A DNA stretch of 64,000 nucleotides from Euglena gracilis (taxonomy: Eukaryota): positions 26,052,954 to 26,116,953 of the forward strand of contig CP154954.1 of assembly GCA_039621445.1 (NCBI GenBank), in the 5' to 3' direction. Below, in pieces: positions 3,611-50,446 of this stretch; the stretch's first letter is position 1; each line of letters opens with the position of its first letter. A program made the position numbers and the translations under genes. Below the pieces are notes generated by a model that saw only the letters and a program-made list of their open reading frames with translations, made no database searches and was not told the DNA's origin.

Positions 3611-5543
3611 ATGGAGGCCACTACATTCAAGACAAGAGAAGTCCAGGAGAACAGGCCAATGGACGCCACCACACTCAAGGCCATCCACTCTACATCAACC
3701 CTTGGGGGGGAGACCCAAGGTTGGTTCAAGCAGACCCCCCCCCAGAAGATAATCATCCCAGACCCCCCATCCTTATATGTGCCTCCCCACTGCAGACACA
3801 GACCGTCTCCCATCATTAAAAAACAGGCGGAAAGCCTGTCTTTGAGAAGCCCTATGGCCCGGCCAGCTGCAGCCCCAGTAATGGGACAGCCATCACTGGG
3901 GTCCTTCCCCAGTGATGGGGCCTGTGGAATCCCCAGACACATTACACCCAGGGGTGCCCCCTTACAAGGCCCTGCAGGCCAGCGTTATCCATTGGCCAAA
4001 GCAGGAGCCAACAGAGAGGTATTAAACCTGACAAGCGAGGGGGTTATGGCAGATCCTCCCCTCCCCCCTCAGATGTCCTTAAAAGTTCCCTTCAAAGCAC
4101 CCCAGGAAAACATTACTGCCCAGAAAATCCTGAGAGAATACGAATGTGCAGGAGCAACCAGGCAAATCCCCCCAGAGGAGGCAAAAAAATTTCTCCCTTA
4201 CTTCATTATTTCCAAAGAGGAAGGGGAGAAGACAAAAGAAAGATTAATCTCAGATTGTCGACAGTTAAATCTCCACTTCACCCCCAAGAAGTTCAGACTG
4301 GAACACATGGGAAACGTCTCCCATATTTAAGAAAGGGTTGGTTTTGTGGAAAAATCGATCTGGAAAATGCTTATTTTCACCTAAAGCTGCACAGCAGCCT
4401 TGAAAAATATGTTTGCGTGTAAGTTGTGGGGGAAATTTGGCAGTTTCATCAGCAGCCTGCCACAAAAATTATGACTCTCATGAGAGTCTGGGAAAGAAAA
4501 TGGAGAAAAAAAGGGAAAGGTGGTTTTTATCTACCTGAACGACATTTTGCTGTTAGCCCCCAGCAAAAATACAGCAGCCCAACATTTGGCAGAAAAAAAA
4601 AGGACCTTTTACTGGCAGGTTTCAGATTAAACCTCCCCAAAGCCTGCCTGAAACCCACAGAGGAAATAAAGCATTGGGGCCAGTGGGTCAATTTCAAAAA
4701 AGGATAAATATAAATTCCTCACGAAAAACTAAAATACCTAAAAACTAAAATAAAGTGCTCACAGCACAAAAAATGTGCTGCAGAAAACTCAGTTAGATTG
4801 TGGGTCAAGTCACAAGCTACTTAGTATCAATGCAATTTCTCAGAATTCTGACAGAGCAACTTTGCAAAATGGTGAACCGGCACACAAAGTTGGGTAGAGA
4901 CAACACCCTAACCATTCCCCAGGGGGTAAAGGATCAAATTGTGGAATTAAAGGCATTTTTACAGCCAGTTGTTATCAGGGCATTTCAATCCCAGGCCCCT
5001 CAGGAACTTTTCTCAGACAGCAGCACCTGGCAGTGGGGGCTGTGGCTAGGCAAACATTCGGGCCGAAAGGTGCAGGATTTTTTGAGTGACCTGCATGTCC
5101 TTCATATCAATCAAAAAGAGTTGCAGGCTGCACTGGAAACTGTAAAAGCTTTGGCCAAACCAAAACAAACTATTGTGCTTCATGTAGACAGCCAGGTGGC
5201 TGTAAGTTATTTAACAAAATGGGGAGGCAAAAAGCCATACCTAAATTCCTTCTTAAAACCCCTGCTGTATCATTGTCAGGAAAGGCAGATAAATTTGCAG
5301 GTGGTTTGGGTTCCCACCCAGGAGCAATTGGCAGACTCCTTGACCAGGGAGCAAAAGGACCCAAGGGATTATACCCTAAAGCTGAACATCACCACATTCT
5401 TCAATTTTTCAAAAAGACATAACCCCAGAGGTGGACATGCTTTGCACACCCAGCAACAAAAAATCCTCCAAGTTCGTCTGTCGACACCCCCACCAAGGGG
5501 CTTTGCTGGTGGCAGAGTTAACGGGCCTCCCCCCCATTTATGA
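3611..5543 (+). pseudogene. DIRS RT-RNase H, frameshifted
   Basis: FIISK..RLISDCRQLN, KIDLENAYFHL, LFSDSS..WG, HINQKELQA, LHVDSQVAVSYL and VWVPTQEQLADSLTR, spread over 4 ORFs. Confidence 0.85.
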
Positions 5544-5739
5544 AAACCCACCCTGGAGCATCATTCCCAAGTGGGTTCAGAGATTAATGTTAAACCCAGA
5601 CCTAACTTGTCTGTTGATCGTACCCCACTGGGCTTCGACGTCATGGTGGCGCCAATTAATGTCAATCAGGCAGCCAGGCAGCAAAGTTTTGCTGGTACCC
5701 TCCCAGTGGGGTCTTTTCACCAACTGCTTGGGGGAGTAG
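5431..5739 (+). pseudogene. DIRS Dam-like (N6-adenine) methyltransferase domain
   Basis: YENPPWSIIPKWVQRL...CLLIVPHW directly after RNase H, the usual position of the DIRS MT domain. Confidence 0.8.
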
Positions 5740-5759
5740 ATCCCCCCCCCAAGGTGGAA

Positions 5760-6642
5760 TTTGGCCTGCTTGATTGTTTCAGGCAAATATTACAATCCCA
5801 GGAAGTTTCGATGTCTAGTGGCGACACTGACATAAACAATCTGCGAAATGTCAAAAGATATGACTCAACCTTCAGGACATTGGTGGGCCAATTGTTGCAA
5901 AAACGGGTGCCCCTGCAGGTCTGCACAGTCCACAAGATTGCCGAGGCCATCCTTGATCTTGCTGTTCACAGCCTCAACACTGCAAGAAATGCATATGCAG
6001 CAGCTTTGTTGCTTCCAGGGTTTCGTTAATTGAGGATTTCCCCTCTTTTGGCTCCATTGAAAGGGAAAAGGAAATCCAATGTATGCAAGTATTCCCGTTT
6101 TTGGAACCCAACTGAATTTCTAGAAAACATAACCAGAAATTCAAACCCCCTCTCAGAACTGTCTGTGAAAAGGCTCAGAAACACGCTCATCATTTGTTGG
6201 AGGCTGTTGGCCCTCCACAGGGGGGTTGACCTAGCCAGAACTCAGCCAGAAAATCAGTTTCGTGGTAGAAAAAATTTTCATTCTGGTGCAAAGGAAAGGG
6301 TGGCAGTACCCCAGGTGGGAGGAGATTTTTAATTTGCCACACAGCCCCCTCATAAGCCCCTGGCATTTATTGAAAGATTATGTGGAAATGACAGCCCACA
6401 TGGTTGGGCACAAAAATAATTTGTTATGGTCTTTGGATGGTAAAAGACCTTTGACCTCACACAGAGTGAATTCACTCACCAGAGAAGTGTTGCAAGAGGT
6501 GGGGGTGGACACCACCCACTGGAAACCCCACAGCACCAGAGGGGCTGGAGTTTTATGGTGGAAAAATGCTGGTTTGCAAGTGGAGGAAGTCCAGCAGCTG
6601 GGTCAGTGGAAAATTTTGGAGCCTATCAAGCCCATTATTTGA
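5760..6642 (+). pseudogene. DIRS tyrosine recombinase, frameshifted
   Basis: LLALHRGVDLAR (catalytic R) and WKPHSTRGAG...QLGQW (H-x-x-R, G-x-W). Confidence 0.85.
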
Positions 6643-7259
6643 GGCTGGGAGTCGTATCAAAAAATCAAAAAAAATTGGCCCAAAGGGGGGTTCACAGCAC
6701 CTCACCATCTCGCAGTGCGGAGCCCGAACGGTCTCGGAATCCCACGACACAGGAAGGGGGAGGAAGGGACCAAGAGGGAGAAGCACAAAAAGACGGTGAG
6801 CCGAACCTCGCCACCCAAAAAAATCAGCAGAAAGACATCCCAGCCAGAAAGGGGACGTCCGAACAAGCAGCCCCAACCACCCACCCAGAAACACACCGGA
6901 AAGAGACAGCCATCCCCACCTCCGGTGGGGCCCCCCACCAAGCGATCAAGTGAGAGGGGGGGGGGGGGCGGGGCCTCGACGGTTCAGCTTTGCCAAGGTG
7001 TCGGAGGAGGCCTCATCGTCGCCAAACTCCGGCAACAAAGACGCAGTAAGAAGCACCGCCCGCGCACGCACAAACACACCAGAACAGAACAGCCGGCAAG
7101 GAAAGCACGACCTCGCCATCTTCTTGTGCTTCGCCTCTTGGTCCCTTCCTCCCCCTTCCTGTGTCGTGGGAGTCCGAAAGTCTGCTGTTTTTGGGTTTTT
7201 CTGCAGCTTTGGGATACTGAGCATTGGTGCTTTCACCCCTTTTTTGGTTGTTTGCAGCG

Positions 7260-7382
7260 GCACTTTGTCTGCCCGTAGAGTGACCCAGTGTTCCAGCTTC
7301 CAAGAGGGTGGACCCCCAGTCACTGGGCAATGGATGGGACCTGAACTGGGGAATTTTTTTCAGTTGGGTCAACCCCCCCTGG
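7260..7382 (+). pseudogene. 5' half of the Dam-like MT domain of DIRS element 2 (interrupted by LTR element B)
   Basis: Reads DLNWGIFFSWVNPPW up to the TSD and continues as EVIGRTLQKV after position 49485. Confidence 0.75.
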
Positions 7383-8029: not shown

Positions 8030-8533
8030 TGTGAGTCAGGGGTGCTGAGTGCCCAAAACAACATAACCTAACCCAACCCAACCTGATGACTCTGCAGTTA
8101 GGATTAGGAAAATCTTATTAGGAATTTCAATCAGCTGACTCTATCTGTCCCTGTGCAGGGCTCTGTCTCTGTCACTCATTCTGTCAGTTGTTCAAGAATT
8201 ATCTGGGATCAATTATCATCAATTGTTTGGACCAATCATTATCTTACCCTTGGTTTGGACTTCTGGACTTTGGTACTCTCTTCCTTTGTGGTTTGCTTGT
8301 ATTGTGCTGTTGGATTTGTGGGATTTTTAAACTTTTGGCAAATACGAGGTGTGAAACTTTGAGCCAACCCACCTCATTTCACCCAAAACACCCTAAAAAC
8401 AAAAGAAAATGCATTTTTTAAAACAGGCCGCGAGGGGAATTGAAATCACCCTGGGCAGGGTAAAAGATCCTACGCAACGGGGTGCCGGCCCCGAGGGACT
8501 GGAAACTCCAGGGCAGGCACCACGGTTACAACA
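8030..8533 (+). repeat. 5' LTR of element A
   Basis: TGTGAGTC...TACAACA, direct repeat of 20482-20985. Confidence 0.95.
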
Positions 8534-11500
8534 TGGTCGCAGAGGTAGACTGCCCAATTTTGATTCCCCTCCAACATGCGGCTACGAACAACAAGCTGAA
8601 AAACGACCAGAAACTGAAAAAAATGACGCTGACATGCCAGCTGCCGAAACCGCCATCGCTAGGGTGGTGGAGCCGGCGGAGGTGGAGCAGGCGGATGGTT
8701 TCCCAGCCATGAACCAAACACTGGAAATGCCAGCTGCCTTAACCGCCATCGTTAGGGTGGTGGAGCCGGCAGATGGTTTTGCCGCCATGTACCAATCACT
8801 GGACAGCAACAGGTGGACTGAAACTGAACAAGACGGCACAGACATTACAGTGCCACGGACATGCAATGACAGCCTACGTGTCATTGCCATGGTGCACATG
8901 GACCAGGACGACACCGAACAGACCGGTCCATCACCAGATTACACAGAACTGGACGAAAACAACGAACCGTACTTCGACGAACAGGTGTTTGCACCACAAA
9001 ACTGGTACCAACAGCCAGAAACGGACACTCAGAACGACCAAAACTGGCAAACTGCAACAGCACAGCAACCAGGAACCCAGAGTTTTGCACTGGTGGCGGT
9101 ACGACAGAGCCCGGAACAACCAGACCGCCTCCAGGGTGAAACTGAAACTTCGTACCAGGAACCTTCGTACAGCTCGTACGAGATTCCACAGCCGGAACCG
9201 CAGAACCAGAACACTGACTGGGACTGGTGGTCGAACTTTGCGTACGAAACTGGACAGCTGACCCAGGAATTTCAACAGTTCAGACGCAAAACTGAACAGA
9301 CGAACCAACAAACGGCAGAAACTCTGCAGCAGCTGCAACAAACAACGACGGAATGGGTCAGCGAACTGCACGCAACAGTCAACAGACAGGGTGAAGCACT
9401 CATGACAGAAATAAACGGTAGACACGAAGATTTTACGACAGTCCTGGCAACAACCCAAGCAAACATGGAACAGGTGACCGTCAACCAGAACAGGCTGTAC
9501 CAGGAACATTTTAACGGAATGTCACAGCAGATCACAGAAATCAGGGAAATGTCTGGCTCACTGGGTGAAAAACTCAGGGAATTTCACAGTTTTCTACAGA
9601 CGGCAGGTGGAAACGCACAGAACCAGGGTGAACATCTGGTTGGTTTACTACACCGACAGCGAGAAAACGAAAAAACAACTGCAGAACTGCAACAAAGATT
9701 GGCTGTGGCAGAAGAACGGGTCGCAGGAATCACAGGCGGAGTCCAAACGGTGAACAGCAAAGTGGACGAAACTGTGGCAACAGTGTCCAGAAAGGTTGAA
9801 AACCTCAGAGGCGAAATCAGCAGTGTGGTGGAAAAAATTCAGAAGGAAATGGGCAGTGAAATCCGAAATCTGACAGGACGGGTTCAGCAGCAGGAAACAA
9901 AAACGACAACAACCATTCAAAACTGTGATTACCTGCACAAAAAACTGGTCGAACTGCAGAAAATCCCAGATCAGCAGCAGCAGATTACACAGCTGAACGA
10001 GGAAATCGGCAGACTGAAACGACAGGTGGAAACTCTGACCTCCAACGAAGAAAAACACAAACAACGCACTGAACGCCTGAACCTGGAGGTCGGCAACCTG
10101 GGTCACAGGGTGGACGAAACAGCCCAAACGACTGAAAACCTGCTGGGTGAACTGCAAAAAGGGGCCATTAAAACGGGAACACATGCCACATCTGAACATG
10201 CCAAATGGCTGGAAATGACATCTGCCATTGGCTCAATGACAACCAGGGTCGGTCAACTGGAAGCAAAACTGGCTGGTCCGATAACAAAAACTGCAGAACG
10301 AGAAACACATGACAACGGCATCTGGCAGCATTTACATACTCTGACCACGGAACTACAAACACAGCAGAAACGGTGGACAGAACAGCTGGTGACCCTGGAC
10401 AGAAAAATCAGCACAGTGACAAAAACGACTGAAAACCTGACTGAAAAACTGGAAAGGCAAAACACCCAGCAAATCACAACCCCCAGCCCTAGCCTGGCTG
10501 AAATACCCAGACTTTTTGAAAATTTAAGCATTTCCTCTCGCCCAGCCTGCACAGGGACCTTCGGGCCAGAGTCAGGGGCCAGCCCCCTGGCCGGTGGGCC
10601 TCCCTCGAGGACCCAGGCTGGACAGCCAGGGGCAGCCACAACGGCCCAGCGAACAGAACAGGGGGTAGACAGGGCCGCGGGCCAACGGGGATCGGGGACC
10701 CCAGAACCCCAGAACCAGCCCCCGGCAGCCCTGAGGGGCCAACCCACAGGACAAAACGGGGCGGGGACCCTAGAACCCCAAGCCTGGCTAACGGGGATGG
10801 GGACCCCACAACCCCTGGCCCAGCCACGGCCAGCCCTGAGGGGCCAGCCCGCAAGAAACCAAGGGACGGGGACCCCAGAACCCCAGGCCTGTCAAACGGG
10901 GACGGGGACCCCACAACCCCTGACAGGTATGTTCAGCCAGAGCAGCCAGCACTGGGGGGACGAAACACCACACCCAAAAACGGAAGGAGGACCTGCAGCA
11001 CTGGGGACCGTTAACCCGGCTTCCCTGGTGGGGCAGCTCATCCAGCAAGAACTAAAAACTGCCTTGACACCGTTAATTGCCCAACTGACTCGACAAACAG
11101 AACAACGGCCGACTGCAGTCCCGACCAGCCCAGCACTTACGACAAACACGACAAGCCCAGTACCACAGTCAACGCAACCTCAGCCGACTCAACAGCCAGT
11201 GACGACGCAACAAAACCCACAGTCCCGGACTCGGGGCTTGTTCATGTGGGCAGACGAAACCGACACTCGGAACACAGCCACAACAACTTGGGTGGGACCC
11301 CAGCTGGGGGCTACCCAAACTGCCATCCACCACATAGGAGAGGAAACAGTGGTGGCACCCGTGGCAACGGCCCCGGCAGCATCCTTCGGGCTGCTGCTGG
11401 GTCCAGTGGGCGCGGCAATGACCAAAGACCTGGTAAGACCAACACTGCAGGGGAATTTCGCAGATTTTGCCGTGAAATTTCCGATGTACCTGCAACGTGT

Positions 11501-12797
11501 GTCAGCCGGTCAGGGGTCCCTGACCGATGACATGAAACTGTCACTGCTGGAGGGCAGCCTGGACAGTGCCAGCAAACTGGAACTACAACGCAGACAGGAA
11601 CGCGGTGAAAAAATAAAATACCAGGAATTTTGGAACTGGATGTGCCAGAAATACGGTGGAGACACACAATCAGCCATCAAAGACGAACTGAAAACCCTGA
11701 GACCAAAAACGGAAGGAAAACTGACACTGGAAGCGTGGAGGGAGTTTGAGGCCCATTTCAAACTCCTCTACAGCAGGCTGGAAAATCCATCAGAGGAAGA
11801 CGCTTACAACCTGGTGGCTGAAAAAATGCCTGAAACGCAACGCAGAAGCTGCATCAGGGAACAGGACCGCAGAAATCAGGACAGACCGACACTGAAACTG
11901 AAAGGGGTCACGAACATTACAAACGTCCCAGATGCAACAACGGAAGACGTTCGTGACCTGGTGGCAGCAACTGTGGGTACAGGTGAGAATTTTCAGGTGG
12001 CACGAGACGGACAAAACTTCAGGATCCAACTGCACAGCAGCAGAGCTGCTGAACTGCTCCTGATGAAAAACGGTTCAACGTTGCTGACTGGACATAAACC
12101 ACACTTCACACAGGTGCAGGCAAGACTGACTCTGGATGAACTGTTCCAACGTGTGGAAACCGAACTCAGGTGCCAACAACAGTCAGACTCCCTGGGTAGG
12201 GGGTACAACGGCTGGCAGAACCAACCTCGTGAAAACAGATCACGGTCGATGGACCGCAGGGGTTACGTCAGGGAAGTCAAGGAGGAGGAGAAAACAAAAT
12301 CCAGAAGTCGGACACCACCTTCCAGATCCCGACCCAACTCCCCTGGACCTCGAACCCCAACACCTGAAAAACCCAGACCCCCTTCTCCACGCCAGCAGGT
12401 GCCCATGGCAGTTTCAGAACAGCCTGGCCAGGGACGGTACACCAACTGGTCAGACTGGGGACAGAACGACTGGGGCAAAGGCAAAGGAAAGGGGAAAGGT
12501 CAAAACTGGGGTTCAACCCAAAACTGGAACCAGAACCAGAACTGGAATCAGAATTACGGCAAAGGCTACGATTCAGGAAAGGGATACAACTCTGGGAAAG
12601 GATACGATTCTGGGAAGGGGAGCGGGAAAGGAAAAGGCAAAGGGCAGCCACAGCCACAGCCAGCAGCAACGAAAACTGAACCACAGCCTCAGCAAACCAA
12701 CTCACAGGAGCCAGCCAACCAGCCACAGGGACAGCCAAAGGCAGAAGCATCTTCCAGCAATCGCTGGCAGCCAGTTCAAAACGCAGAACGGAAGTGA
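8409..12797 (+). CDS. gag: Gag-like polyprotein of element A (long coiled coil, Pro/Gln/Thr spacer, GKG-rich tail); the real start is more likely the ATG at 8634, outside the LTR
   Basis: Uninterrupted 1462-codon ORF between PBS and pol; its C-terminal half resembles the gag fragments of element B. Confidence 0.85.
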   Translation: MHFLKQAARGIEITLGRVKDPTQRGAGPEGLETPGQAPRLQHGRRGRLPNFDSPPTCGYEQQAEKRPETEKNDADMPAAETAIARVVEPAEVEQADGFPAMNQTLEMPAALTAIVRVVEPADGFAAMYQSLDSNRWTETEQDGTDITVPRTCNDSLRVIAMVHMDQDDTEQTGPSPDYTELDENNEPYFDEQVFAPQNWYQQPETDTQNDQNWQTATAQQPGTQSFALVAVRQSPEQPDRLQGETETSYQEPSYSSYEIPQPEPQNQNTDWDWWSNFAYETGQLTQEFQQFRRKTEQTNQQTAETLQQLQQTTTEWVSELHATVNRQGEALMTEINGRHEDFTTVLATTQANMEQVTVNQNRLYQEHFNGMSQQITEIREMSGSLGEKLREFHSFLQTAGGNAQNQGEHLVGLLHRQRENEKTTAELQQRLAVAEERVAGITGGVQTVNSKVDETVATVSRKVENLRGEISSVVEKIQKEMGSEIRNLTGRVQQQETKTTTTIQNCDYLHKKLVELQKIPDQQQQITQLNEEIGRLKRQVETLTSNEEKHKQRTERLNLEVGNLGHRVDETAQTTENLLGELQKGAIKTGTHATSEHAKWLEMTSAIGSMTTRVGQLEAKLAGPITKTAERETHDNGIWQHLHTLTTELQTQQKRWTEQLVTLDRKISTVTKTTENLTEKLERQNTQQITTPSPSLAEIPRLFENLSISSRPACTGTFGPESGASPLAGGPPSRTQAGQPGAATTAQRTEQGVDRAAGQRGSGTPEPQNQPPAALRGQPTGQNGAGTLEPQAWLTGMGTPQPLAQPRPALRGQPARNQGTGTPEPQACQTGTGTPQPLTGMFSQSSQHWGDETPHPKTEGGPAALGTVNPASLVGQLIQQELKTALTPLIAQLTRQTEQRPTAVPTSPALTTNTTSPVPQSTQPQPTQQPVTTQQNPQSRTRGLFMWADETDTRNTATTTWVGPQLGATQTAIHHIGEETVVAPVATAPAASFGLLLGPVGAAMTKDLVRPTLQGNFADFAVKFPMYLQRVSAGQGSLTDDMKLSLLEGSLDSASKLELQRRQERGEKIKYQEFWNWMCQKYGGDTQSAIKDELKTLRPKTEGKLTLEAWREFEAHFKLLYSRLENPSEEDAYNLVAEKMPETQRRSCIREQDRRNQDRPTLKLKGVTNITNVPDATTEDVRDLVAATVGTGENFQVARDGQNFRIQLHSSRAAELLLMKNGSTLLTGHKPHFTQVQARLTLDELFQRVETELRCQQQSDSLGRGYNGWQNQPRENRSRSMDRRGYVREVKEEEKTKSRSRTPPSRSRPNSPGPRTPTPEKPRPPSPRQQVPMAVSEQPGQGRYTNWSDWGQNDWGKGKGKGKGQNWGSTQNWNQNQNWNQNYGKGYDSGKGYNSGKGYDSGKGSGKGKGKGQPQPQPAATKTEPQPQQTNSQEPANQPQGQPKAEASSSNRWQPVQNAERK
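8534..8545 (+). promoter_or_regulatory. Primer-binding site of element A (initiator tRNA-Met-like)
   Basis: TGGTCGCAGAGG directly after the LTR; 11/12 match to the TGGTAGCAGAGG iMet-type PBS. Confidence 0.6.
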
Positions 12798-13031
12798 AGG
12801 GGCTGCGGCCTGAGGGTAGGGGACGAGAGGGGCGACTCTCTGCAGACACAACCGAAACAACAAAACAAACAAAGGGAACCAGGTCCAGAGCCGCAGCGGT
12901 CATACACACTGGGTAAGGGAGGTAAGAAAAAACCCCAAAAGAAAAACATCCTGACAAAAAAACGACTCCACAGCCCAGAACCGAAAAGGGAACAGGTCAG
13001 CTGCAGGTTCGGCAGAGCAGCTTCACGGTGG

Positions 13032-14662: not shown

Positions 14663-14682
14663 TCACAGCGGACGGAACAAGG

Positions 14683-16077: not shown

Positions 16078-16111
16078 AAAAGGACAGGGGAAGAAAGGAA
16101 GCCTGACACCT

Positions 16112-20470: not shown

Positions 20471-20481
20471 GGGAAGGGGAG
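20471..20481 (+). promoter_or_regulatory. Polypurine tract of element A
   Basis: GGGAAGGGGAG immediately before the 3' LTR. Confidence 0.85.
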
Positions 20482-36746: not shown

Positions 36747-36928
36747 AATTGTAGCTCCAAGTGTAAAAATGGATTGTATAGGACCGTAGTCCTTTTAGCG
36801 AAAAGTCCTTCGCTAGGGACAAAATGGTTTGGCATCCGCCCATTATACATTTTGGCATCCGCCCATTATACATTTCGTCGAAAGTCCATGCTATGGACAA
36901 AATCTTGGACATCTTTGTATATCCTCCC

Positions 36929-40735: not shown

Positions 40736-42132
40736 TATACCAGGTGTATCAGGTGTATTGTGTAGAGGACAATTGTCGTTGGCATTCTGCCACTTGTATG
40801 CAGGGACATTGGAGGGGTTGGCATTCTGCCATTCGGGGTCAGAGAGATTGGCTTTCTGCCATTGGAGGTCCTGCTGCGCTGCGCGATTCTCGCGATTCCG
40901 AACAGGGACGCGATTCCGCGTTTGTCCAATTGTCGATGTACTTCAACACACAACGGGTAGCAACCCGGTGTGTTGTGTTCTCGTTCAGTGGTCAGGGTAA
41001 ACTCGGTACCGGTCCCGGTACCAAGTGTACTCTGGTTGTTGTGTAAAGCGATTAGTTTGGAAGGTTCAACAATACATCCACAGTCGAAATCAGGTTGTGT
41101 GGAAATTCTCCGGCAATGTGCGCATTGGTAGGAAGTGTCGGTCTGGTAGTGCATGTCAGTCGTGTGTAGTGTGTGTATGGGGGTGTTGGAAGTTGTAGCT
41201 GCTGGGGGGTGTACAGGGGTGTCCGAAATCGACACACCTGGTGGAAAACGTAAAAGTTGTGCAGCTGGGCGGCTACTCGACACCGAAATTTCTTCAGGCC
41301 TTTGGGCTTTCGCCTTGGAACCCAGTGAAACGTGGGGGGTTAAGCTACTCGCTTTCCCTACCGCATGGGAAACGTGCGGTAAAAGTGTAGTGGGCAGGGG
41401 GGCAGCTTTCTCTTTACCCCTAGGGTAGGAAACGGTGTTTTCGGTTGTAGAAAACGTTGTGGCAAGGCGGGGGGACATCTGGGTAGATGTCTTGGGGGAG
41501 AAATTCGGTGGTGTGGGTTGTGTGCGTGAAGTAGTGCGCAAACCGAGGGAGGGGCAATCCACAACAAGGCGGTTCTGACGCAAGAACGGAAAACCCAAAA
41601 TTACGTCAGAGCCGCGAATACCCGATTCGTAACTCCAGGTACCCAGAAAATTTTGTGTGTGTGGGGGCTGTGAGTGGTGCTTGGGGATGATGGGGAGAAG
41701 TATGTCCAAAAAGCATCCCAAGTCACCACCACACATGGGGCTGTTGTCAGCAGTCATAATTTTGATGGGGTACTTGGCTTTCACCAAGAGGGAGTTGGGA
41801 ATTAATCCCGTTCGAAAGAGAAGGGGGATTCGACACCCTGTGTCGACCAAAATTTTGCATTTGGTAGAAAAATTTTGTGTTCGGATTTCCGCTTGGACCA
41901 AAAGTTCCATGGGGGGTACGCAAAGTGCAGGATCCGGTGTAAAATTGTTGTCTCTCCAACTATTCCAGGATCCCGTTCCTACTTTGCTCAGCATTCCAGG
42001 CAGAAATTTGGAGTGGGGGGTGGGGGACCCGAAAATTTTCCGGGTACCGACCAAAAAGGCAGATGGGCAGGGAAAGTAAGGTTGATCAGGTCCTACTTCC
42101 GTCTGTTCATCAGCCCAGAGGTCCGTGCCCAC
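40735..42132 (-). CDS. Aspartic protease region of element C, in frame with gag across one TAG
   Basis: [12 protein letters not shown] and [17 protein letters not shown]. Confidence 0.85.
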
Positions 42133-42147
42133 AGACCTCGGGCTCCC

Positions 42148-45100
42148 CTACTCCAAGTCCGATTCAGCACTTCGGCTGTTTATCGTTTTCTTGTGTGAGT
42201 AGATAGCGCGCAATGCGCGGACCGCATTGCGGTCATCCTCCAACGAGGATTCAGAGTTCTCATCCCCCTCCCTGCCCGAAGCCGGGGTTCCCTCCTCCAA
42301 AGAGGAGATTTTGAACCCGACCTTGTGTTTGTTGTTGTGTTTTGTATCATTGTAGTGACGTTGGTTCGGGCGGGGAGAGCGAGAACGGTAACATTTGGAC
42401 GAATGGTGGTTATGTGATCCACAAAGGGAACACTTTTGTCGGTTTTGTGATTTTTGTCGGTTTTGTGATGGGCTTTCACCCCTTGGAGGTCTTGGTGAAC
42501 GGAATCCCGTTCGACCACGGTTCTTGTTGTAATCCGGTTTCCCGGATGACGATCGCGAAGAAGATGATCCACTTCGCGAACGTGATCGCGATGAGTCGCG
42601 ATTTGTATCACGCTTGTAAGGGGGTCGGGGTGATCGACCACGAGGTGCGCGATCGCGTCCGCGGTCGCGGAACGGTGATCGGGACCTTTGGCGATAACCC
42701 GAAGATTGTGATTGTCCAGATTTGTGTGAAAACCCAGAGGAGCGTGAGCTCCGCGAGGATTGTGAACCCCTTGGACTCTGATACCGCTTTCGCGTATCAG
42801 GGTGGGGGCAATCACGGGACGTATGCCCCGTTTTGTTGCACAAAAAACAAGTTTTGTCAGAAGATTGGTCAGATGAGCGCGGATAGCGCGTTTTTGTATC
42901 TCCCCTTGGGGAGTTTGTATGTTTACCGTATCCCCTTGGGGATTTTGGAGAAGGAGACTTTTGTAGGGCACTTACCGTACCGCTAGGGAGACCAGCGGTA
43001 GGGTGGTGGGTATAAGCCGATTGTATCTGTCCCAAAAGTTGTGAGAGTTTCATTTGTTTGGATACATAGTTCCATCGTTGTTCAAGTGTGAGTTTGTTGT
43101 CCGCGAGTTCCTCGCGGTGAATGTCCTTGATAATTGTAGGAATGAAATGGAGGAGAACCGCATCGAATTGTTCTTTCATTTGGTTCTCTCCCAGTTCATC
43201 AACCTCAGAAGCCAATCCCAACCATTTGGAATACCAAAGGTCGATGGACTTCCATTTTCGGTCACTGGGCGCGAATTGCCGCCATTTTTTCTCCAGCGTA
43301 ATTCGCGAAATGAGGCTTGAACAGGTTGACGCATATTGGTCAACCAGTTCATCAAAAGTTATCCGATTCCGGATCACAAGTTGTCGGGCGCGTTCTTTTT
43401 CTTCCTTGGGGAGGCAATCAATGAATTCCATCTTGATTACCTCAGGGTTCCCGTCTTGGGTTGGACCCTTCAAGTCCCAGTAGTATGTCCAATCGCGCCA
43501 AAATTGTTTCCAGGTTGTGGGATCTCCGTCCCATTGTGGCTTTACCTTGTTGGCAATTGTAATTGTACCTTTGAAATCGCGTGGTGGACCGCGATTTCCA
43601 TCGTAATTGTTGGGGTAAGGTTGTTGTTGTGGCATTCGCGAATGCGCATCCATGATGGTACTCATGGTACCGTAGGTACCATGGGTATTTGGTACATCGC
43701 ACTTCCGCGAATTGTATGGTTGTGGTTCGCGATTCCGCGATTCGGATTGTAAAGGGTCGCGATTCCGCGATTCGGGGTGTGGCAACATACCAGGGAGGTA
43801 GGACTCCCGTTGTTCACCCGCAAATCGGGGAACCGCGGTAAATTCCGTGTTTCGCATTCGCGATCCATGGCCAATACCCGGGGTAGGGGTATGGCTCATA
43901 CCGCGAATCAGTCCCGATTCGCGTATTTCTTGTTGTAAAATCGGAGGATTCGCGGTTTTTGTGGTAAAAACCGGTTCCTCATCCGAAGATTCACCCTTGT
44001 GCGGGGGAATCTTGATTTGTGGTATAAACGGGCGATTATAATTGCGATTGTAGGCATGTTCATGATCATGTGCATCCGTGGATGCTTGTAGGGCATGCGC
44101 ATCCGAAGATGCTTGTAGGGGTGCGCATACTGCGCTTTTGGAAGGATTGGCATCCAACGAATCGCGAATTTGATGCACAAAGTCGCGAGTTGGATGTCGG
44201 GCATCCGAAGATGCTTCGGTTGATGCGCGAAAAGCGCGTTGTGAGCTGGAAGTTGCATTTTGACCACCGAAAACGGTGTTTTCATGGCCAAAGTGCGGGG
44301 GGTTGCGGGGTTTTGCATGAATCTCATCCAGACTCAATGCAAAATCTTGTATGCTTTGTTCCAATGAACCAACCACTTGGAAAAGGTCCGAAATTCGTTC
44401 AACATCACACTGCAAACGCTTAATACGTTTGCGGTATGAGGGTAGTTCATCCAAAAGTGGTAGTTTGTCAACAATGGAGGCAAAATCTGCTGAAAGCTTT
44501 GGAAAAGTGGTGTCCAAGAATTGGACCCGCTTAACCAAAGTTTCCATTGCGGTTGTAAGGGTGTTCAACCGATTCTCGGTTTGTGGTTTTGTGGTACCCA
44601 ACGTGGGTTGGAGTACCCCTACCGCATTTTCAGCGGTTTTGTCATCCATCATTGTAGAAAGTCGGTTCTCCAACACCGAGATTTGTTGTTTTAGTGTGAG
44701 AACTTGTTGGGTGACCGAATTTTCGGTCCTCATCAAGGTTTCACAAAATTCTTGTAAGTTTTCCTGATTTTTCGCAAGCATTTGGTCGTAAAATGTGCGA
44801 AAATCAAGGGGTAGTTCGACTTCGCGAACCGTTTGTCCATCCGAGGATGGTTGGAGTCCGGAGACCCTTGTAGAAAGTGTTTGTACGCGTTTTTGTAAAT
44901 GGGAAGTGGTGGATTGTAAGGTTTTGTGTTGGGTATTCAAATCCGCAAGTGCGGTTTCAATGCCGGTGATATCCGGAATTGATTTTTGAATACCGTTGCA
45001 CCGTTTGTGCAAATCCGCAAACGCGGATTCGATTTTGTTCACATCCGCTTGTAACTGATTGTGCAAATCGGTTACAGTGGATCGTAATGCTCCCATACTG

Positions 45101-46308
45101 GGATTTTTGGTGGAAGTTTCCGCAAAGCGGCGTTGTAAGTCCCGAATTGCAGTTTGTAGTCCCGAAACATCCGCAAAAGCGGTTTTCAGGTCTGCAAACG
45201 CAATTTGGAGGTCCGCATTCGCGGTTTGGATGGTAGTTATGACCGTTTCTCGGTCTTGGAGTTCCGCATTCGCGGTTTGTAAGCTAAGAATCACCGCATC
45301 GCGGGATTGGAGTTCCGCCGTAGCGGTTTGTAGCGCATTGGACGCAGTTTCAAGTTTTTGTATGTCGTTTTGCCACTTTTCATGGAGGAAATCTTGCCGA
45401 TGCGCGATTTCCGCCACTTGAGTGTGCAATGTGGTCAAATTGTGGGAAACTTCACCGCATTTGCAGGAAGTTTGTTCCAAACGAGCAATCCGCTCTTCCA
45501 GTTGTTGAGCAAAAGCTCTTTGTACATAGTTTTCGCGTATTTGTGTAAAATTTTGATGAAAACTTGCGTTTTCATCACCCAAACGCAAAATGCGTTCCTG
45601 GGATTGTTGTACAACATTGGATAGGGTTGAGAAGTGCTCATATGAGACATATGAGCCAAGTTCCGCACCCGTAGGCGCTTTATCCCGTTGTTGTAGGCGG
45701 GACTGCATTTCTTTCATTGTATAAGAAAAGTTTTCCAGTTGTGTGAACAATTGTTGTAAATTTTGTTGTAAATGTGAAAATTTTGTGTTATTCCGCGATT
45801 CCGCGGTTTGGAGGGTCTCTTGTACCTGTTGGAAGTTGTGTACCAAGGTGTTGCGCAAAAATGCGTCAAAACCTTGGTGGAGGTTCTGAAGGTCCATTGT
45901 AGTGGAGTTAAAATTCTTTTGGCAAAATTGTCCAAATTCTTGGATATATTGCCAAAGGAAGTCCAGCTTGCCGAAAACGGCCTTGTGACTGTCTTCATCA
46001 AATTGTAGGACTTGGTTCAGTGTTTTGGCGCAATTTTGGACACATGCTTCGGTGTGTCGAAATTGCTGTTGTAGTGGGTGGTTCTCCGGTAAATTTGCGA
46101 CTACGCGCTCAACGGTATTACTGGAGAACGAATCCCGGTCTTCTTCGGGGTCATTGTCCATGGGAACAATGACACCGGCAGTGTCCGGGACCACCAACCG
46201 CATTTCAGCGGACCAAGGTAGTTCTGGGATTTCTCCCAATTGTGGAGGGGGGGCAAGTCCCGAATGGGGCTTACCGGTGGTAGGGCCGGGGGGGGTTGGA
46301 AAAAACAA
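42148..46308 (-). CDS. gag: Gag of element C (long coiled coil, capsid-like region, two CCHC knuckles, RS-rich linker)
   Basis: 1386-codon ORF with WDGDPTTWKQFWRDW, CFLCNKTGHTSRDC and CSLCGSHNHHSSKC. Confidence 0.9.
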   Translation of the reverse strand: MFFPTPPGPTTGKPHSGLAPPPQLGEIPELPWSAEMRLVVPDTAGVIVPMDNDPEEDRDSFSSNTVERVVANLPENHPLQQQFRHTEACVQNCAKTLNQVLQFDEDSHKAVFGKLDFLWQYIQEFGQFCQKNFNSTTMDLQNLHQGFDAFLRNTLVHNFQQVQETLQTAESRNNTKFSHLQQNLQQLFTQLENFSYTMKEMQSRLQQRDKAPTGAELGSYVSYEHFSTLSNVVQQSQERILRLGDENASFHQNFTQIRENYVQRAFAQQLEERIARLEQTSCKCGEVSHNLTTLHTQVAEIAHRQDFLHEKWQNDIQKLETASNALQTATAELQSRDAVILSLQTANAELQDRETVITTIQTANADLQIAFADLKTAFADVSGLQTAIRDLQRRFAETSTKNPSMGALRSTVTDLHNQLQADVNKIESAFADLHKRCNGIQKSIPDITGIETALADLNTQHKTLQSTTSHLQKRVQTLSTRVSGLQPSSDGQTVREVELPLDFRTFYDQMLAKNQENLQEFCETLMRTENSVTQQVLTLKQQISVLENRLSTMMDDKTAENAVGVLQPTLGTTKPQTENRLNTLTTAMETLVKRVQFLDTTFPKLSADFASIVDKLPLLDELPSYRKRIKRLQCDVERISDLFQVVGSLEQSIQDFALSLDEIHAKPRNPPHFGHENTVFGGQNATSSSQRAFRASTEASSDARHPTRDFVHQIRDSLDANPSKSAVCAPLQASSDAHALQASTDAHDHEHAYNRNYNRPFIPQIKIPPHKGESSDEEPVFTTKTANPPILQQEIRESGLIRGMSHTPTPGIGHGSRMRNTEFTAVPRFAGEQRESYLPGMLPHPESRNRDPLQSESRNREPQPYNSRKCDVPNTHGTYGTMSTIMDAHSRMPQQQPYPNNYDGNRGPPRDFKGTITIANKVKPQWDGDPTTWKQFWRDWTYYWDLKGPTQDGNPEVIKMEFIDCLPKEEKERARQLVIRNRITFDELVDQYASTCSSLISRITLEKKWRQFAPSDRKWKSIDLWYSKWLGLASEVDELGENQMKEQFDAVLLHFIPTIIKDIHREELADNKLTLEQRWNYVSKQMKLSQLLGQIQSAYTHHPTAGLPSGTVSALQKSPSPKSPRGYGKHTNSPRGDTKTRYPRSSDQSSDKTCFLCNKTGHTSRDCPHPDTRKRYQSPRGSQSSRSSRSSGFSHKSGQSQSSGYRQRSRSPFRDRGRDRAPRGRSPRPPYKRDTNRDSSRSRSRSGSSSSRSSSGKPDYNKNRGRTGFRSPRPPRGESPSQNRQKSQNRQKCSLCGSHNHHSSKCYRSRSPRPNQRHYNDTKHNNKHKVGFKISSLEEGTPASGREGDENSESSLEDDRNAVRALRAIYSHKKTINSRSAESDLE

Positions 46309-46519
46309 GGTGTTTCCAACCCGTCCTCGTAAGGGGGGGGCTCTGTAGGCAATTGGGTGCCAAAAGGCGCTAATTGCCAGTTCCGTTCGGGCATTCTGCC
46401 CACTTGTGAGTCAGACTCCGCAGAAGCGGAGGGGGTCCATAGACCCATTGTAGGGTTATGTTGTACCGCAAATGCGGCTGTTTTAACAGTGGGTCCGCGA
46501 ATGCGGGTTGGGTCCGTAG

Positions 46520-46860
46520 ACCCTTGTAGGGGGGGGGGCACCGCCAAAGCGGCTTGGGTCCGAAGACCCTTGGAGGGGGGGGGTACCGCCGAAGCGGCTT
46601 GGGTCCGAAGACCCTTGGAGGGGGGGGGCACCGCCGAAGCGGCTTGTTGTAGGGGGGGGCACCGCTAATGCGGTTTGGGTTCGAAAACCCAGTTGTGGGG
46701 GGGGTACCGCCGAAGCGGCTTGGGCGTCCGCCCCTTGTATGGAGAAATTTTCCACCGCAGAAGCGGCTTGGGCATCCGCCCCTTGTGGATAAAAATTTTC
46801 TGTCGCTAAAGCAACTTGGGCATTCGCCCCTTGTAAAGAAAAATTATTCGTCGCCGTAGC
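46520..46860. repeat. ~45-bp degenerate tandem repeats in the leader of element C
   Basis: Recurring CCGCCGAAGCGGCTTGGG..CCCTTG-G-run units. Confidence 0.7.
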
Positions 46861-47150
46861 GACTTCGTCTGCATTCTGCAGTCCACGAAGCGAACCTATT
46901 AACAAAGCATAGTTAATAGGTGCGTTTCCAGTGTGTGCATGTGCACTTTGCATTTCAGATGAAAAATTGGGAAAATTTTTGTGAAAATCGTAAAAATTGT
47001 AAAAATTTGTGTGAAAAGACCCAAAAAAATAAGCAAAGGTGGGGGCTCAGAGGCGTTGTGATGCAGCCGTAGCCACTTGTGCCCCTGAGACACCTCGCCC
47101 GTGCTTAGGCGCCTTTTTCTGAGTTTTTCTTTGGTCGTTCGACCGTTAAA

Positions 47151-47165
47151 CCTATTCTGCTACCA
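47151..47165 (-). promoter_or_regulatory. Primer-binding site of element C (initiator tRNA-Met-like)
   Basis: TGGTAGCAGAATAGG directly follows the 5' LTR on the minus strand. Confidence 0.75.
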
Positions 47166-47598
47166 AGTGTACGTCCCACCCCGGCTTTTCTACTTATGCT
47201 TTCCTCCCGAAAAGCCTGTGGGGGGAGTAACAATAAAATTTGCTTCCCTTTTCCCCTTTTGAATGCAAAGCACACAAGCAGAAGAATTGGTGGGACCGCA
47301 GTCCCTTATATGAAAGTGACTTTCGCTCTTTCGAGCTTTGTAAAAGAAAGAAATAAAACTTGTATTCAAATGGGACTTCGCCCTCAGTATTCTAAAAGAG
47401 AATTGCAAAGCACCAAACCCAATAACCTTGAATTAGGAACCAGTTACTTTCGCTAAGCTTTCGCTAGCTCTGAGACTCTCTCTTTGTCTTATGGTTTTAA
47501 CCATGCCACTGTGTACGGCCCGGCCGTAGCCAGGTTGTAGGCCGTAGCCCCTTGTATCTGGTACACAGTGCCATGGCAGAATGGCTGCCTGGTACACA
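47166..47598 (-). repeat. 5' LTR of element C
   Basis: Direct repeat of 29889-30321. Confidence 0.95.
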
Positions 47599-47884
47599 AG
47601 AACCCCTACCATTGAATTTTTACCAAAGCGAAACCGAGGATGTGGAAGCTACCCCCGGAGAATATGTTGTGGAAAAAATTATTTCACATAGAAAAGGTCC
47701 AAATGGACAATGGCAATTTCTTGTGAAATGGAAGGGTTGGGATGAATCGGATAACACTTGGGAACCCATCGGGCATTTTTTCCATCGTTACGCCCGAGAA
47801 TGTTTTGTTTACGCCGAGGAGGCAAATTTGAAAATCGACCTCATGGCGTATTTCAAAAAGAGAATTCGGGAGGGTTCCGTGTGA
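47599..47884 (+). pseudogene. Chromodomain C-terminus of element B pol
   Basis: EYVVEKIISHRKGPNGQWQFLVKWKGWDESDNTWEP. Confidence 0.9.
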
Positions 47885-48774
47885 GGAATTCAGGGGTTTT
47901 CTCCATTTCTCAGATTTTTTCAGTTTTTTTTTTCAAGGCGCCAAGTTTCGTGGGGAATCGGTCCCGCAGGTTGCGGGGTCGCTTTCTTTTTTGATCTTTT
48001 GATTTTTGGTACTCGTCTGCAGCGGGTAACAGATCGAAAGACACACAAACACACACAAAGGCAATCAATAAGTGGTTCGAACGGTTGGATAAAGAGGTGG
48101 AAACCCACAAAAAAAGTTGCGCAACAACAAAAAAAAAAGCGGTAAACCACAAAGGTGGTTTGGTTCTAAGAGACGTCAAAAAAAAAAGACGTTCAAAAAA
48201 AGTCGGAAAGTTCCTTAAGGACAACAAAAAAGCCAAAAATCAGAAAGGGGAGTGTGTGCATTTGAGCTTGTTAAGGCTTGCCGTGCAACTTTCGAGTTGC
48301 AACGCAACCCTTGGCAAGACGGGCTGTGAGACGACCTATCCCAATACACCCCCCCCGTTTGTTTTTTTGACCCCCAGCCACATTGCAACAACACACGACT
48401 TACACATACGCGGACCTTCACCGCGGAGGCATCGTGGAGGAGACCCGCGGTGGTGGGGGTGGTACGGGGCCTCTAAAGCCCCTCCCCCCGTTGGTGATGC
48501 GCCAGACGCACGCGGCTGACCGCTGCCCCGTTGCCCGCACCGTTGCACCGTGCGCCGCACCGTGCCACACCTCGTGGGGGTAAGCGTGCCCTTCGGGCCG
48601 CCCCCCCCCCCCTCGCTTTGCTCGACACTCGAAAGTTATTTGAACGTTACGCATTCTGACCATCCGCTACACAACCACGGGTGAAAGTGCCCCCCCAACT
48701 TGTTTCTTTCGTTCGGACCCCTCATTTTACTTACGTTTTTCGAAATCTCCCCGAGATTTTTCTAAGTGGGGGAG

Positions 48775-49481
48775 TGTTAAGGGGTCCTTAACCAACAATT
48801 TGACCTAAATGGGCCTTGGGGCTTGGAAAATCACTGAAATTCCCATTTTTTGGATTTCAGTCGAATTAAAAGTTCGGAAAAGGTTCTGTGGGTAGGCCTT
48901 TGAAGCCTGAACCCCTATTTTGGCCTTTCCGGCCTTAACTGGCGAAATTTCCTGGACCAGTCGGCCGAATTTTTCCGGTCGGTAGGAACAGTGCAAATTC
49001 CTAGTTAAGCAAAGCCCCAAATCGAACCCCCCAATTTCAAACTCAATCTCACACACAGGGTTCTTTACCTACCGAACGTACTGAATAACACTACAAAAAA
49101 AATCAATTGTTTGTGCTTTTGAAGAGGCTGATTTTGGTTAAAAATCAATTTCAAGGTGGATTTGGAAAGGCTCAAAAGCCAAAAAAAGAAAAGTTTGAAG
49201 AAATTGAATACGAAGGCCGGCCAGCCCTACCCCTTTTTTTTCCAACAATTCTTTTCTCTTTTTGTTTTTTTTTCATTTTTTATCTCTTTTTTCCATTTTT
49301 TTTTTTTTTTTTTTTTCTTTTTTCTCTCCCTTTTCAATTTCTTTTCTTCCCCCTTTTTTCATTTCTTTTTTTCTTTTTTTTCTTTTTTCTTCTCTCTTTT
49401 TTCTTTTTCCAATTCTCCTTCCTCTCAAACCATGCGAGGCCGAAGGATCCGAGAAACCAAGAACCAAAGAAAGGGTTTTCA
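48775..49481 (+). repeat. 3' LTR of element B (with a ~200-bp T-rich insert at ~49228-49425)
   Basis: Repeat of 7383-7894, preceded by PPT AAGTGGGGGAG (48764-48774) and followed by TSD CTGG. Confidence 0.9.
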
Positions 49482-50446
49482 CTGGGAGGTAATCGGCAGG
49501 ACACTACAAAAAGTTCAACAGGATCAGGCCAGGGCCTGGTCTGTCTACCAATGTCGCCAGCCCAACATTGGTGGAGGACATTGACTTCACTGCAGGTCCA
49601 AGAGCCACTGATAACAAAAGGGGAGGCAATTTTCAGAAACCCAGACGGGCAAAAAAAATGCCCCCACCACATTGGGCAACCCTTTTTTCTATTGTTCAAG
49701 GATTAATTTTCTCAGCCCGCCACCGATCCGTAAAGGAATCAGACAGCTAAAAAGCGAACATGACATCCCACTGTCAACCATGATTTCGTAGATTGAAGAT
49801 GCCCTCCAGACATCTACCAAACCCAGGGAAGCGGTGTTGCTCAGGCAGGGAAAAAGAAGACTGCAGCAGGCCACAAAAAAGGGCAAATACCCAATGATTT
49901 TGAGAACCAACCTCTTCTGCATTTGGCTTCCCCAATGTTTTTGAGGATTCCTCAGGTGTTCCTGATTCTTCAACATTGATTCTTCAAGGGCGTTTGACAA
50001 CAATATCTCGAAGTTTTGATTGTGAAGCATTAGTGTGGAGACTGTTCGTTTTCAATGATCAGTATTTTGTTCGTTGCACGTCCAAAAACGGTTTTTCGGA
50101 GACTTTTAACGTCCCGAACCGTGTGTGGCAAAATCTGGTCAAATATCTTTTTTTGGCACAAGGATTCCCCCAATTTTTTTTATTCCGCCACGAGAAAGAA
50201 CCGGGACTTTGTTTCGCTTCAGAAAGGATTGCAAAAAATGTTTTACTCCTGATGGAAAAAGGGAGGGTTGGCACAAATGTTTTTAAAGCCCATTCTTTAC
50301 GAGCGGCAACGGCACATCAACCATTTGATGGGCCAAGGGGTCCCCAAAAATTGATGATCCAAGGGCGGCGGCACTGGAAAACGCTGCGGACCCTCCGCCA
50401 GTACTACCTAATGCTGCAAAATCGTGCGAATTTGTGGTGGTGCTAA
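49482..50446 (+). pseudogene. DIRS element 2 remnant: 3' half of the Dam-like MT and a tyrosine recombinase
   Basis: WEVIGRTLQKVQQDQARA / LVCLPMSPAQHWWRTL, then VFKAHSLRAAT...HWKT..LRQYY. Confidence 0.78.

Follow-up and report, generated by a model that had tools for sequence, protein, structure and literature searches.

Adenine- and cytosine-methyltransferase domains in a nested pile of Euglena gracilis retrotransposons: probably few gains, followed by reshuffling and decay

Cytosine DNA methyltransferases (DNMTs) encoded by retrotransposons of Symbiodinium and charophytes methylate CG de novo, and self-methylation of the retrotranscribed DNA was proposed for them (de Mendoza et al. 2018, PMC5890265). 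A preprint of May 2026 (bioRxiv, 10.64898/2026.05.21.726589) describes DAM-LTRs, long terminal repeat (LTR) retrotransposons of the Ty3/gypsy type whose Dam domain has a DIRS origin, and EpiLTRs, which combine DAM, DNMT and a chromodomain and are found in Euglena gracilis and Cymbomonas. According to this preprint, the eukaryotic DAM family is largely monophyletic, the domain passed from DIRS to LTR elements at least four times among eukaryotes, and Euglena presents a 'more complex scenario'; the catalytic pocket of the DAM-LTRs is preserved, N6-methyladenine (6mA) is higher on DAM-LTR copies than on other LTRs, and the EpiLTR DNMT is a separate acquisition, sister to DNMT4 and not to DNMT3. 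Eukaryotic DAMs brought about no gain of 6mA in E. coli, and RNA-DNA hybrids were proposed as the substrate. LTR elements make up 21.8% (Table 4) or 32.81% (text) of the genome in the 2024 E. gracilis assembly paper, and for Euglena the preprint cautions that nesting of insertions can produce chimeric calls. Here we describe a 64,000-nucleotide stretch of E. gracilis DNA (assembly GCA_039621445.1, contig CP154954.1, positions 26,052,954 to 26,116,953 of the forward strand), referred to below as the window, in which six methyltransferase (MTase) domains lie within 44 kb across five retrotransposons, the LTR elements A, B and C and the DIRS-like elements DIRS-1 and DIRS-2. We propose, at a probability of about 0.62, that the lineage of A, B and C gained its Dam domain once, at its base, and a C5 cytosine methyltransferase (C5-MTase) once, on the branch of A and B, and that loss, decay and reshuffling followed.

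The elements belong to kinds already described, DAM-LTRs and EpiLTRs, and because that idea is already in print, the main yield of the window is a set of resolved examples with their LTRs, target-site duplications (TSDs) and order of nesting. The pile spans positions 2900-50500 of the window (Table 1); the window as a whole has a GC content of 50% and a TTAGGG array at its end, both compatible with E. gracilis as the host. The six MTase domains that a sequence-only reading had listed are all present where it placed them, and Pfam, motifs, tblastn and trees support them at the level of the domain, beyond four-letter motifs; an open frame and the catalytic motifs are both kept solely in the Dam and C5-MTase of A. 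Three pairs of long direct repeats, recovered by self-comparison of the window with their flanks read base by base, are the LTRs of A, B and C. B was inserted into the Dam-like domain of DIRS-2, A and C were inserted into B, and DIRS-1 lies alongside; the two LTRs of an element are most alike in C (100%), less so in A (99.8%) and least in B (98.9%), in keeping with this order of nesting. The three LTR pairs share no BLAST similarity with one another, as the same reading had held, and their primer-binding sites (PBSs) differ, too. Its statement that the TSD types also differ applies to C alone (5 bp, versus 4 bp in both A and B). A, B and C are chromoviruses, since each has a reverse transcriptase (RT), an RNase H, an integrase and a chromodomain, the latter C-terminal, after the integrase (Pfam Chromo, 8.1e-10 in A, 2.6e-14 in B and 7.3e-10 in C).

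For the trees, the best 120 of 574 matches to the RT of C were taken as RT relatives; 115 of them, with most of the RT-RNase H region, were treed, and their Dam and C5-MTase domains were scored with profiles built in this analysis. The Dam relatives are the best 150 of 7715 matches to a Dam profile built from the window. RT-RNase H trees were obtained with FastTree (118 rows) and IQ-TREE (46 rows, LG+G4) and the Dam tree with IQ-TREE under a mixture model (51 rows). In the FastTree tree, a single 70-row clade with support 100 takes in A, B and C together with every one of the 48 database proteins that bear an MTase (40 with Dam, 6 with C5-MTase and 2 with both); the rest of this clade consists of 18 N-terminally truncated rows and 1 complete protein without an MTase. 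None of the 48 rows outside this clade (14 complete ordinary Ty3/gypsy proteins and 34 N-truncated ones) bears an MTase; among complete database members, an MTase is thus present in 48 of 49 inside the clade versus 0 of 14 outside. This retention across a large clade suggests that the domains matter to the elements. The IQ-TREE analysis separates the MTase clade at 100/99 and, within it, a 16-row subclade holding C, all with Dam (100/99), and a 12-row subclade holding A and B, all C5-MTase-bearing where complete (100/99), in which A, B and P0266 group at 100/97. As A, B and C fall in one RT lineage, one transfer suffices within it. The pairwise identities of the MTase domains run parallel to those of pol: A and B share 43-52% in the RT, 50-57% in the RNase H, 44% in the integrase and 52% and 40% in the C5-MTase, and A and C share 35% in the RT and 30% in the Dam. 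In the Dam tree, all 39 LTR-context rows, including A and C, are split from the DIRS-context rows by branches of 96/92 and 98/91. The Dams of DIRS-1 and DIRS-2 lie among the DIRS-context rows, that of A among rows with both Dam and C5-MTase, and that of C in a protease-Dam-RT clade supported at 100/100.

The sequence-only reading had explained the six domains by repeated, at least partly independent capture, possibly from co-resident DIRS elements, and had named a comparison of MTase trees with RT trees as the check. Carried out as far as possible, this comparison gave trees that match, which speaks against that explanation. An account in which A, B and C each captured MTases independently, perhaps from DIRS elements of the same genome and under host selection for self-methylating retroelements, can draw on the positions of the domains, which differ as that reading had described (in A before the protease, in C after it, between protease and RT) and to which the inverted domain of B is to be added. 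It can also draw on the unrelated LTRs and PBSs, on the at least four DIRS-to-LTR transfers and the 'more complex scenario' in Euglena reported in the preprint, and on the C5-MTase tree, in which B is not sister to A. However, unlike LTRs and PBSs are expected for families whose pol regions are 30-50% identical, and A, B and C share the one RT clade in which almost every complete member carries an MTase. A donor among the co-resident DIRS elements fits poorly with the Dam tree, where DIRS-1 and DIRS-2 stand on the far side of both splits, and with the Dam of A being nearer to that of C (30% identity) than to that of DIRS-1 (22-23%). We regard independent capture as quite unlikely.

Several points weigh against a single gain of each domain. 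The sampling is biased, because relatives were picked by likeness to the RT of C or to the window's Dam profile, and only about 10 DIRS-context Dams are in the tree. All trees are unrooted; a single transfer requires the root to lie among the DIRS Dams, and an unrooted Dam tree with three monophyletic groups cannot order those groups. The Dams of A and C lie on opposite sides of the protease, so that one gain needs a later rearrangement, and recombination between elements would blur the distinction between one gain and a recapture. In the C5-MTase tree, B pairs with P0047 (86/96) outside the 23-row clade of A (95/95), a looser relation than the closeness of A and B in the RT tree. In the preprint, Euglena Dam clades are mixed between DIRS and LTR elements, a pattern ascribed there to exchange of recent date or to nesting of insertions. 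For A and C, the frameshifts may stem from the assembly and need not be real defects. Finally, the activities are predicted only, and the E. coli assay of eukaryotic DAMs reported in the preprint was negative.

Reshuffling is visible in the order of domains among 54 C5-MTase homologues, where the DNMT follows the Dam in 5, precedes it in 5, follows the RNase H in 1 and the protease in 1, and precedes the RT in 1, the protease in 1 and the integrase in 2. There are further orders, such as protease-Dam-DNMT-RT in P0250 and P0263, both within the RT subclade of A. P0053 and P0054, stand-alone proteins with 235-240 aa and a high content of K, N and I, are the most distant homologues of the compact C5-MTase and form a long separate branch (100/100), a possible clue to where the module came from.

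Element A reads gag, in-frame TGA, Dam, C5-MTase, protease, RT, RNase H, integrase and chromodomain. All EpiLTR features were found in it (Dam, C5-MTase, chromodomain, LTRs and Ty3/gypsy pol), and as in EpiLTRs the Dam, C5-MTase and chromodomain are held in one unit bounded by LTRs and TSDs. The main text of the preprint gives no domain order for Euglena; in A the order is gag-stop-Dam-DNMT-protease-RT, and its relatives show at least six other orders. The Dam of A scores above the gathering threshold of PF05869 (5.9e-8, 33 bits versus a cut-off of 28.1). Its C5-MTase is a module of about 215 aa with DLFCGTKS, GVPCTEFS and ENPRYG as motifs I, IV (PC) and VI, which resembles the DNMTs of the Symbiodinium and charophyte retrotransposons in lying in the coding region and differs from them in being compact and paired with a Dam; the preprint treats the EpiLTR DNMT as a separate acquisition. 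A 105-bp tandem repeat (10680-10923) lies within the gag of A. In both A and C the gag ends in a stop (TGA at 12795-12797 and TAG at 42148-42150, respectively) and pol continues in the same frame, which suggests that stop-codon read-through may be the gag-pol strategy of the lineage. P0001, a sibling of A (94-96% identical), has Dam, C5-MTase and protease in one open reading frame (ORF), and P0266 has RT through chromodomain in one ORF; as both read through in one frame, the copy of A changes frame near 13460, 14640 and 15956. Similarly, P0206, a sibling of C (96.5-98.3% identical), reads through the frame change of C near 40880. Since P0001, P0266 and P0206 are uninterrupted, the window copies of A and C, both very young, either have real defects or were assembled with small indels.

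The siblings also bear on the possibility that the gypsy-borne MTases are artefacts of nesting or misassembly, with domains of other fragments having landed inside the elements. The window is heavily nested, the Dam of DIRS-2 lies 1 nt from the LTR of B, the C5-MTase of B is on the wrong strand, and the preprint's warning on nested-insertion chimeras concerns this very genus. Nevertheless, the MTases are true parts of the polyprotein, as the siblings P0001, P0206 and P0208-P0213 with their single ORFs make plain (P0208-P0213 and others run from protease through Dam, RT, RNase H and integrase to the chromodomain in one ORF), and self-comparison of the window revealed no extra LTRs or TSDs around the domains within A or C. 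The artefact is refuted for A and C and may hold in part only for the inverted segment of B; as an explanation of the gypsy-borne MTases it is extremely improbable.

In B the EpiLTR feature set is incomplete: the chromodomain is there, tblastn with the Dam of A found no Dam in B, and the DNMT is inverted and broken. The C5-MTase of B was found by tblastn with the domain of A (52% and 40% identity, E = 1e-44). The sequence-only reading had listed this domain; we add its opposite-strand position, antisense to the gag and pol of B, which that reading omitted. DLFSGTKS (25667-25690), SIHCTEYS (25499-25522) and ENP (25388-25396) are recognizable, with one frameshift near 25380, after ENP. Motif IV reads HC for PC, and this proline is invariant in 34 of 34 aligned sequences; A has C5 motifs I, IV and VI and the catalytic fold, whereas B fails in motif IV. 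In P0047, the nearest relative of the C5-MTase of B, C5-MTase and protease share one ORF; its MTase part matches the minus strand of B and its protease part the plus strand, and the simplest reading of this mismatch is that some 850 bp were inverted in B or in its family. The inverted repeats flanking the domain are only A/T-run low-complexity pairs, all on one side, and gave no inversion mechanism. A T-rich low-complexity insert of about 193 nt (49228-49420) is present in the 3' LTR of B and not in its 5' LTR.

Element C consists of gag, in-frame TAG, protease, Dam, RT, RNase H, integrase and chromodomain, followed by a further frame, ORF3. Together with its 16-row RT subclade it resembles the DAM-LTRs, in the order protease-Dam-RT-RNase H-integrase, with a chromodomain in most. 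Its Dam matches Pfam below the gathering threshold (8.6e-4, 19.5 bits) and was assigned by its place in the protease-Dam-RT clade of the Dam tree. In contrast to the preserved pocket reported for DAM-LTRs in the preprint, neither C nor its eight closest RT relatives (72-99% identical) retain the NPP-aromatic motif: C reads HPPL, the relatives HPPL, HPPS, NPSL, HPPA, HPPA, NPPI, NPPL and NPPI (NPP[FYW] in 0 of 8), and the Dam evolves much faster than the RT, with 43-49% identity to that of C in close kin where the RT-RNase H region retains 79-83%. As its catalytic tetrapeptide has drifted to HPPL, the Dam of C is probably no longer an enzyme. The HPPL of C resembles the EPPL of METTL14, the degenerate motif of a non-catalytic MTase paralogue. 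ORF3, between pol and the 3' LTR, is mostly Pro/Ser-rich and disordered, with two cysteine-rich blocks; it matches no Pfam family, the protein atlas returned a blank for it, and its residues 860-1280 have no homologue among proteins of 1116-3553 aa, the length range searched.

The structural model of the C5-MTase of A (AF2, pLDDT 92.8) finds its best PDB folds in the catalytic domains of DNMT3A, DNMT1, DIM2 and M.HhaI, and an alignment of A with 33 homologues shows no or almost no variation in the Pro-Cys, the ENP and a DYCQ...KPTRIW block. The model of the Dam of A (AF2, pLDDT 94.7) has an adenine-N6 MTase fold. Its top structural match is the mRNA cap adenosine-N6 MTase PCIF1/CAPAM (6irw_B, E = 1.2e-5, TM 0.60), to which it has no detectable relationship in sequence (16% identity in the structural alignment); this indicates likeness of fold and not membership. 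KsgA, Dim1 and Erm, which dimethylate adenines of rRNA, are also among the best matches, and the best 50 ranks contain no DNA Dam.

These folds, the motif loss in C and its eight relatives, the presence of NPP[FYW] in only 13 of the 44 Dam domains of C-related pol proteins whose polyproteins are nevertheless long and open, and the E. coli result with the proposed RNA-DNA hybrid substrate (10.64898/2026.05.21.726589) could all be taken to mean that the MTase-like domains are by now mostly something other than DNA MTases, either structural or nucleic-acid-binding parts or enzymes acting on RNA. Against this, 129 of 164 Dams from the profile search have NPP[FYW], so that most of the family looks catalytic; the C5-MTase family keeps PC, ENP and its other motifs invariant; and according to the preprint, 6mA is more abundant on copies of DAM-LTRs than on the remaining LTRs. 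Moreover, the PF05869 profile matched no PDB sequence at E<=1, and since the PDB holds no member of that family by sequence, the fold ranking of the Dam of A may only mirror the set of solved structures. We consider a general shift away from DNA methylation unlikely. Rather doubtful, too, is a more specific version, in which the chromovirus Dam would not be a DNA MTase, the A type being an adenine-N6 MTase for RNA or RNA:DNA hybrids whose target is the genomic RNA of the element itself or an intermediate of its replication, and active elements throughout the C subfamily keeping a dead module for another job. If true, the lineage would be a test bed for the repurposing of captured enzymes by retroelements, with a cassette at at least seven positions and an ORF3 without relatives. 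In either case, the label 'self-methylating' is unproven for these elements, C and its close kin lacking the canonical motif, and carrying a Dam domain does not equal making 6mA, because a sizeable part of the lineage is without the catalytic motif.

Returning to few gains followed by reshuffling, we infer the following history, with its activities, substrates and benefits, from anatomy, homology, folds and trees. The ancestor of the RT lineage of A, B and C would already have had a DIRS-type, Dam-like adenine MTase in its polyprotein, and the branch leading to A and B would have gained the compact C5-MTase. The MTase cassette would then have moved within the polyprotein, to either side of the protease, with Dam and C5-MTase in either order, or beside the RNase H or the integrase. 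In the proposed outcome A keeps the full EpiLTR set, B has lost its Dam and holds an inverted, dead C5-MTase, and the Dam of C has drifted to HPPL, with DIRS-1 and DIRS-2 presumably carrying their own, separately related Dam domains. The presence of six domains in 44 kb would result from chromodomain-guided insertion of the elements into one another, not from separate captures; a chromodomain that steers integration into repeat-rich chromatin would explain the nesting. In intact members of the family, the MTases might be made as part of Gag-Pol through stop-codon read-through, be cut free by the protease and target the products of the element's own reverse transcription, the C5-MTase giving 5-methylcytosine at CG and the Dam possibly 6mA on DNA or on an RNA:DNA hybrid, and the resulting marks may let new copies fit the host epigenome.

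The observed/expected CpG ratio is 0.23 in DIRS-1, 0.57 in A, 0.73 in B and 0.96 in C; the lower value of A relative to C is consistent with past methylation of CG in the family that bears the DNMT, each value coming from a single copy.

Retrotransposons with DNA-modifying enzymes of their own could write their own epigenetic state and not merely undergo that of the host. To the published picture the window adds the loss of the motif in a large subfamily, an inverted C5-MTase and the giant ORF3. It also calls for caution in two respects: B, sitting inside the Dam of DIRS-2, shows that nesting can yield false DIRS/LTR chimeras in pipelines that rely on domain proximity, and within this RT lineage one gain with reshuffling explains the data better than repeated capture.

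Table 1 Positions of the retrotransposons and their domains in the window (RT, reverse transcriptase; aa, amino acids).
Feature	Position	Strand	Details
Third DIRS-like RT fragment	379..1382	-	YVDDILLL ~792; Pfam RVT_1 2.5e-5 in ORF 855-1382; runs off toward window start
DIRS-1, degenerate DIRS-like element	2900..6650	+	outer borders approximate
DIRS-1 RNase H	ORF 4797-5543	+	Pfam RNase_H 9.2e-5, below gathering score
DIRS-1 Dam-like domain	5401-5790	+	NPPW 5545-5556; Pfam Dam 1e-3, 19.2 bits, below gathering score
DIRS-1 tyrosine recombinase	6235-6642	+	Phage_integrase 3.3e-4, 20.9 bits vs cut-off 27.1; HxxR...LGQW pattern
DIRS-2 left part	6651..7382	+	low-complexity basic region, then N-terminal Dam piece 7284-7382; NPPW 7371-7382
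DIRS-2 right part	49482..50446	+	TSD copy 49482-49485; Dam remainder 49486-49703; tyrosine recombinase 49976-50431
B 5' LTR	7383-7894	+	TG...CA; PBS TGGAGGTCCTACC at 7895
B internal part	20986..29888	+	interrupted at 29888 by C
B gag with zinc knuckle	ORF 24078-24557	+	
B A/T-run spacer	24656-25046		
B C5-MTase	25107-25738	-	antisense to B gag and pol; ATG 25736-25738
B protease ORF	25916-26911	+	
B RT	YIDD 27452	+	RNase H-integrase continues to 29888
B 3' part	47599..49481	+	integrase end, chromodomain 47663-47770, polypurine tract, 3' LTR
B 3' LTR	48775-49481	+	98.9% to 5' LTR over 454 nt; TSD CTGG
Element A, 12,956-bp chromovirus	8030..20985	+	inside B, 135 nt after B 5' LTR
A LTRs	8030-8533 / 20482-20985	+	504 bp, 99.8% identical; TG...CA ends; TSD GTGC
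A gag ORF	8397-12797	+	1466 aa, largely low-complexity; ends TGA (12795-12797)
A Dam	13020-13478	+	same frame after gag TGA; NPPF 13218-13229; upstream of protease
A C5-MTase	13658-14305	+	PF00145 3e-5, 24 bits vs cut-off 22
A protease	~14480-14910	+	LIDTGAQ 14573-14593
A RT	YVDD 15736	+	
A RNase H-integrase-chromodomain ORF	16064-18742	+	Pfam RT_RNaseH, rve and Chromo, plus RVT_1 for RT
Element C, 17,710-bp chromovirus	29889..47598	-	inserted in B integrase
C LTRs	29889-30321 / 47166-47598	-	433 bp, identical; TSD AGAAC; PBS TGGTAGCAGAAT
C gag	46410-42148	-	1420 aa, largely low-complexity; zinc knuckle near C-terminus; ends TAG
C protease ORF	42147-40735	-	ILVDTGC 41833-41853
C pol ORF	40942-36929	-	Dam, RT (YIDDVL 39479-39496), RNase H, integrase, chromodomain
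C Dam	40208-40645	-	aa 100-245 of pol ORF; HPPL 40421-40432; between protease and RT
C ORF3	36794-30702	-	2030 aa, between pol and 3' LTR

Both DIRS-like copies with MTase domains are broken. DIRS-1 appears to resemble MTase-bearing DIRS1-like elements in its order of domains, with the remains of an RT ahead of RNase H, Dam-like domain and tyrosine recombinase, and DIRS-2 resembles them in having the Dam-like domain followed by the recombinase; unlike typical DIRS1-like elements, both are wrecked, and DIRS-2 is without RT and RNase H. The RT of DIRS-1 is recognizable by degenerate motifs only (DLENAYFHL, YLNDILLL) in shifting frames, without a Pfam RT match, and its Dam lies in another frame than the RNase H ORF and contains an in-frame stop (5737-5739). 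With pieces of DIRS-1 as queries, tblastn against the window found no second copy. Just upstream of DIRS-1, at 2631-2974, a palindromic unit of 43 bp (GAGGAGGATCAAAATCCTCCTC...) is present in six copies.

DIRS-2 is split by 42 kb of nested chromoviruses, B having been inserted exactly 3' of the NPPW codons, with the TSD CTGG at 7379-7382 and 49482-49485. The remainder of its Dam has one frameshift near 49531-49535 and aligns to the Dams of A and C. Both halves are matched by the database protein P0168, which combines a Dam with a tyrosine recombinase: residues 48-73 of P0168 are 65% identical to the translation of 7305-7382, and its recombinase part (itself a Pfam match at 7.8e-11) is 38.8% identical over 152 aa to that of 49976-50431 (joint E = 2.4e-34). 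As P0168 matches the Dam halves and the recombinase, the split element is real, and P0168 and DIRS-2 come out as sisters in the Dam tree (100/91). A search for terminal repeats of the DIRS elements gave one inverted pair only, of about 100 nt and 88% identity (1259-1357 / 7021-7121). The same basic peptide is encoded at both sites, upstream of the minus-strand DIRS-like RT and upstream of the Dam piece of DIRS-2, and the pair is more likely sequence shared by DIRS-2 and the minus-strand fragment than a DIRS terminal repeat. This suggests, as far as sequence goes, that DIRS-2 may be an internally deleted relative of the fragment at 379-1382.

Over the whole window, Rfam at gathering thresholds gave no match and ARAGORN no tRNA, and hence no tRNA that matches a PBS; Pfam searches of 32 additional ORFs from the flanks and between the elements returned nothing relevant. 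To the right of the pile (53577-60811) there are a number of unrelated repeats, both tandem and dispersed. Units of 63 bp make up 57325-57479 and 58419-58562, and units of 112 bp occupy 59864-60708, between the arms of a 102-nt inverted pair; a further pair, of 82 nt, has its copies at 53577 and 57272. The local ORFs have no Pfam match. From about 62494 G-rich periodicities of 12 and 18 nt appear, and a degenerate TTAGGG array, telomere-like or interstitial, extends from 62559 to 63994, at the window end, with about 238 units and 74% matches.

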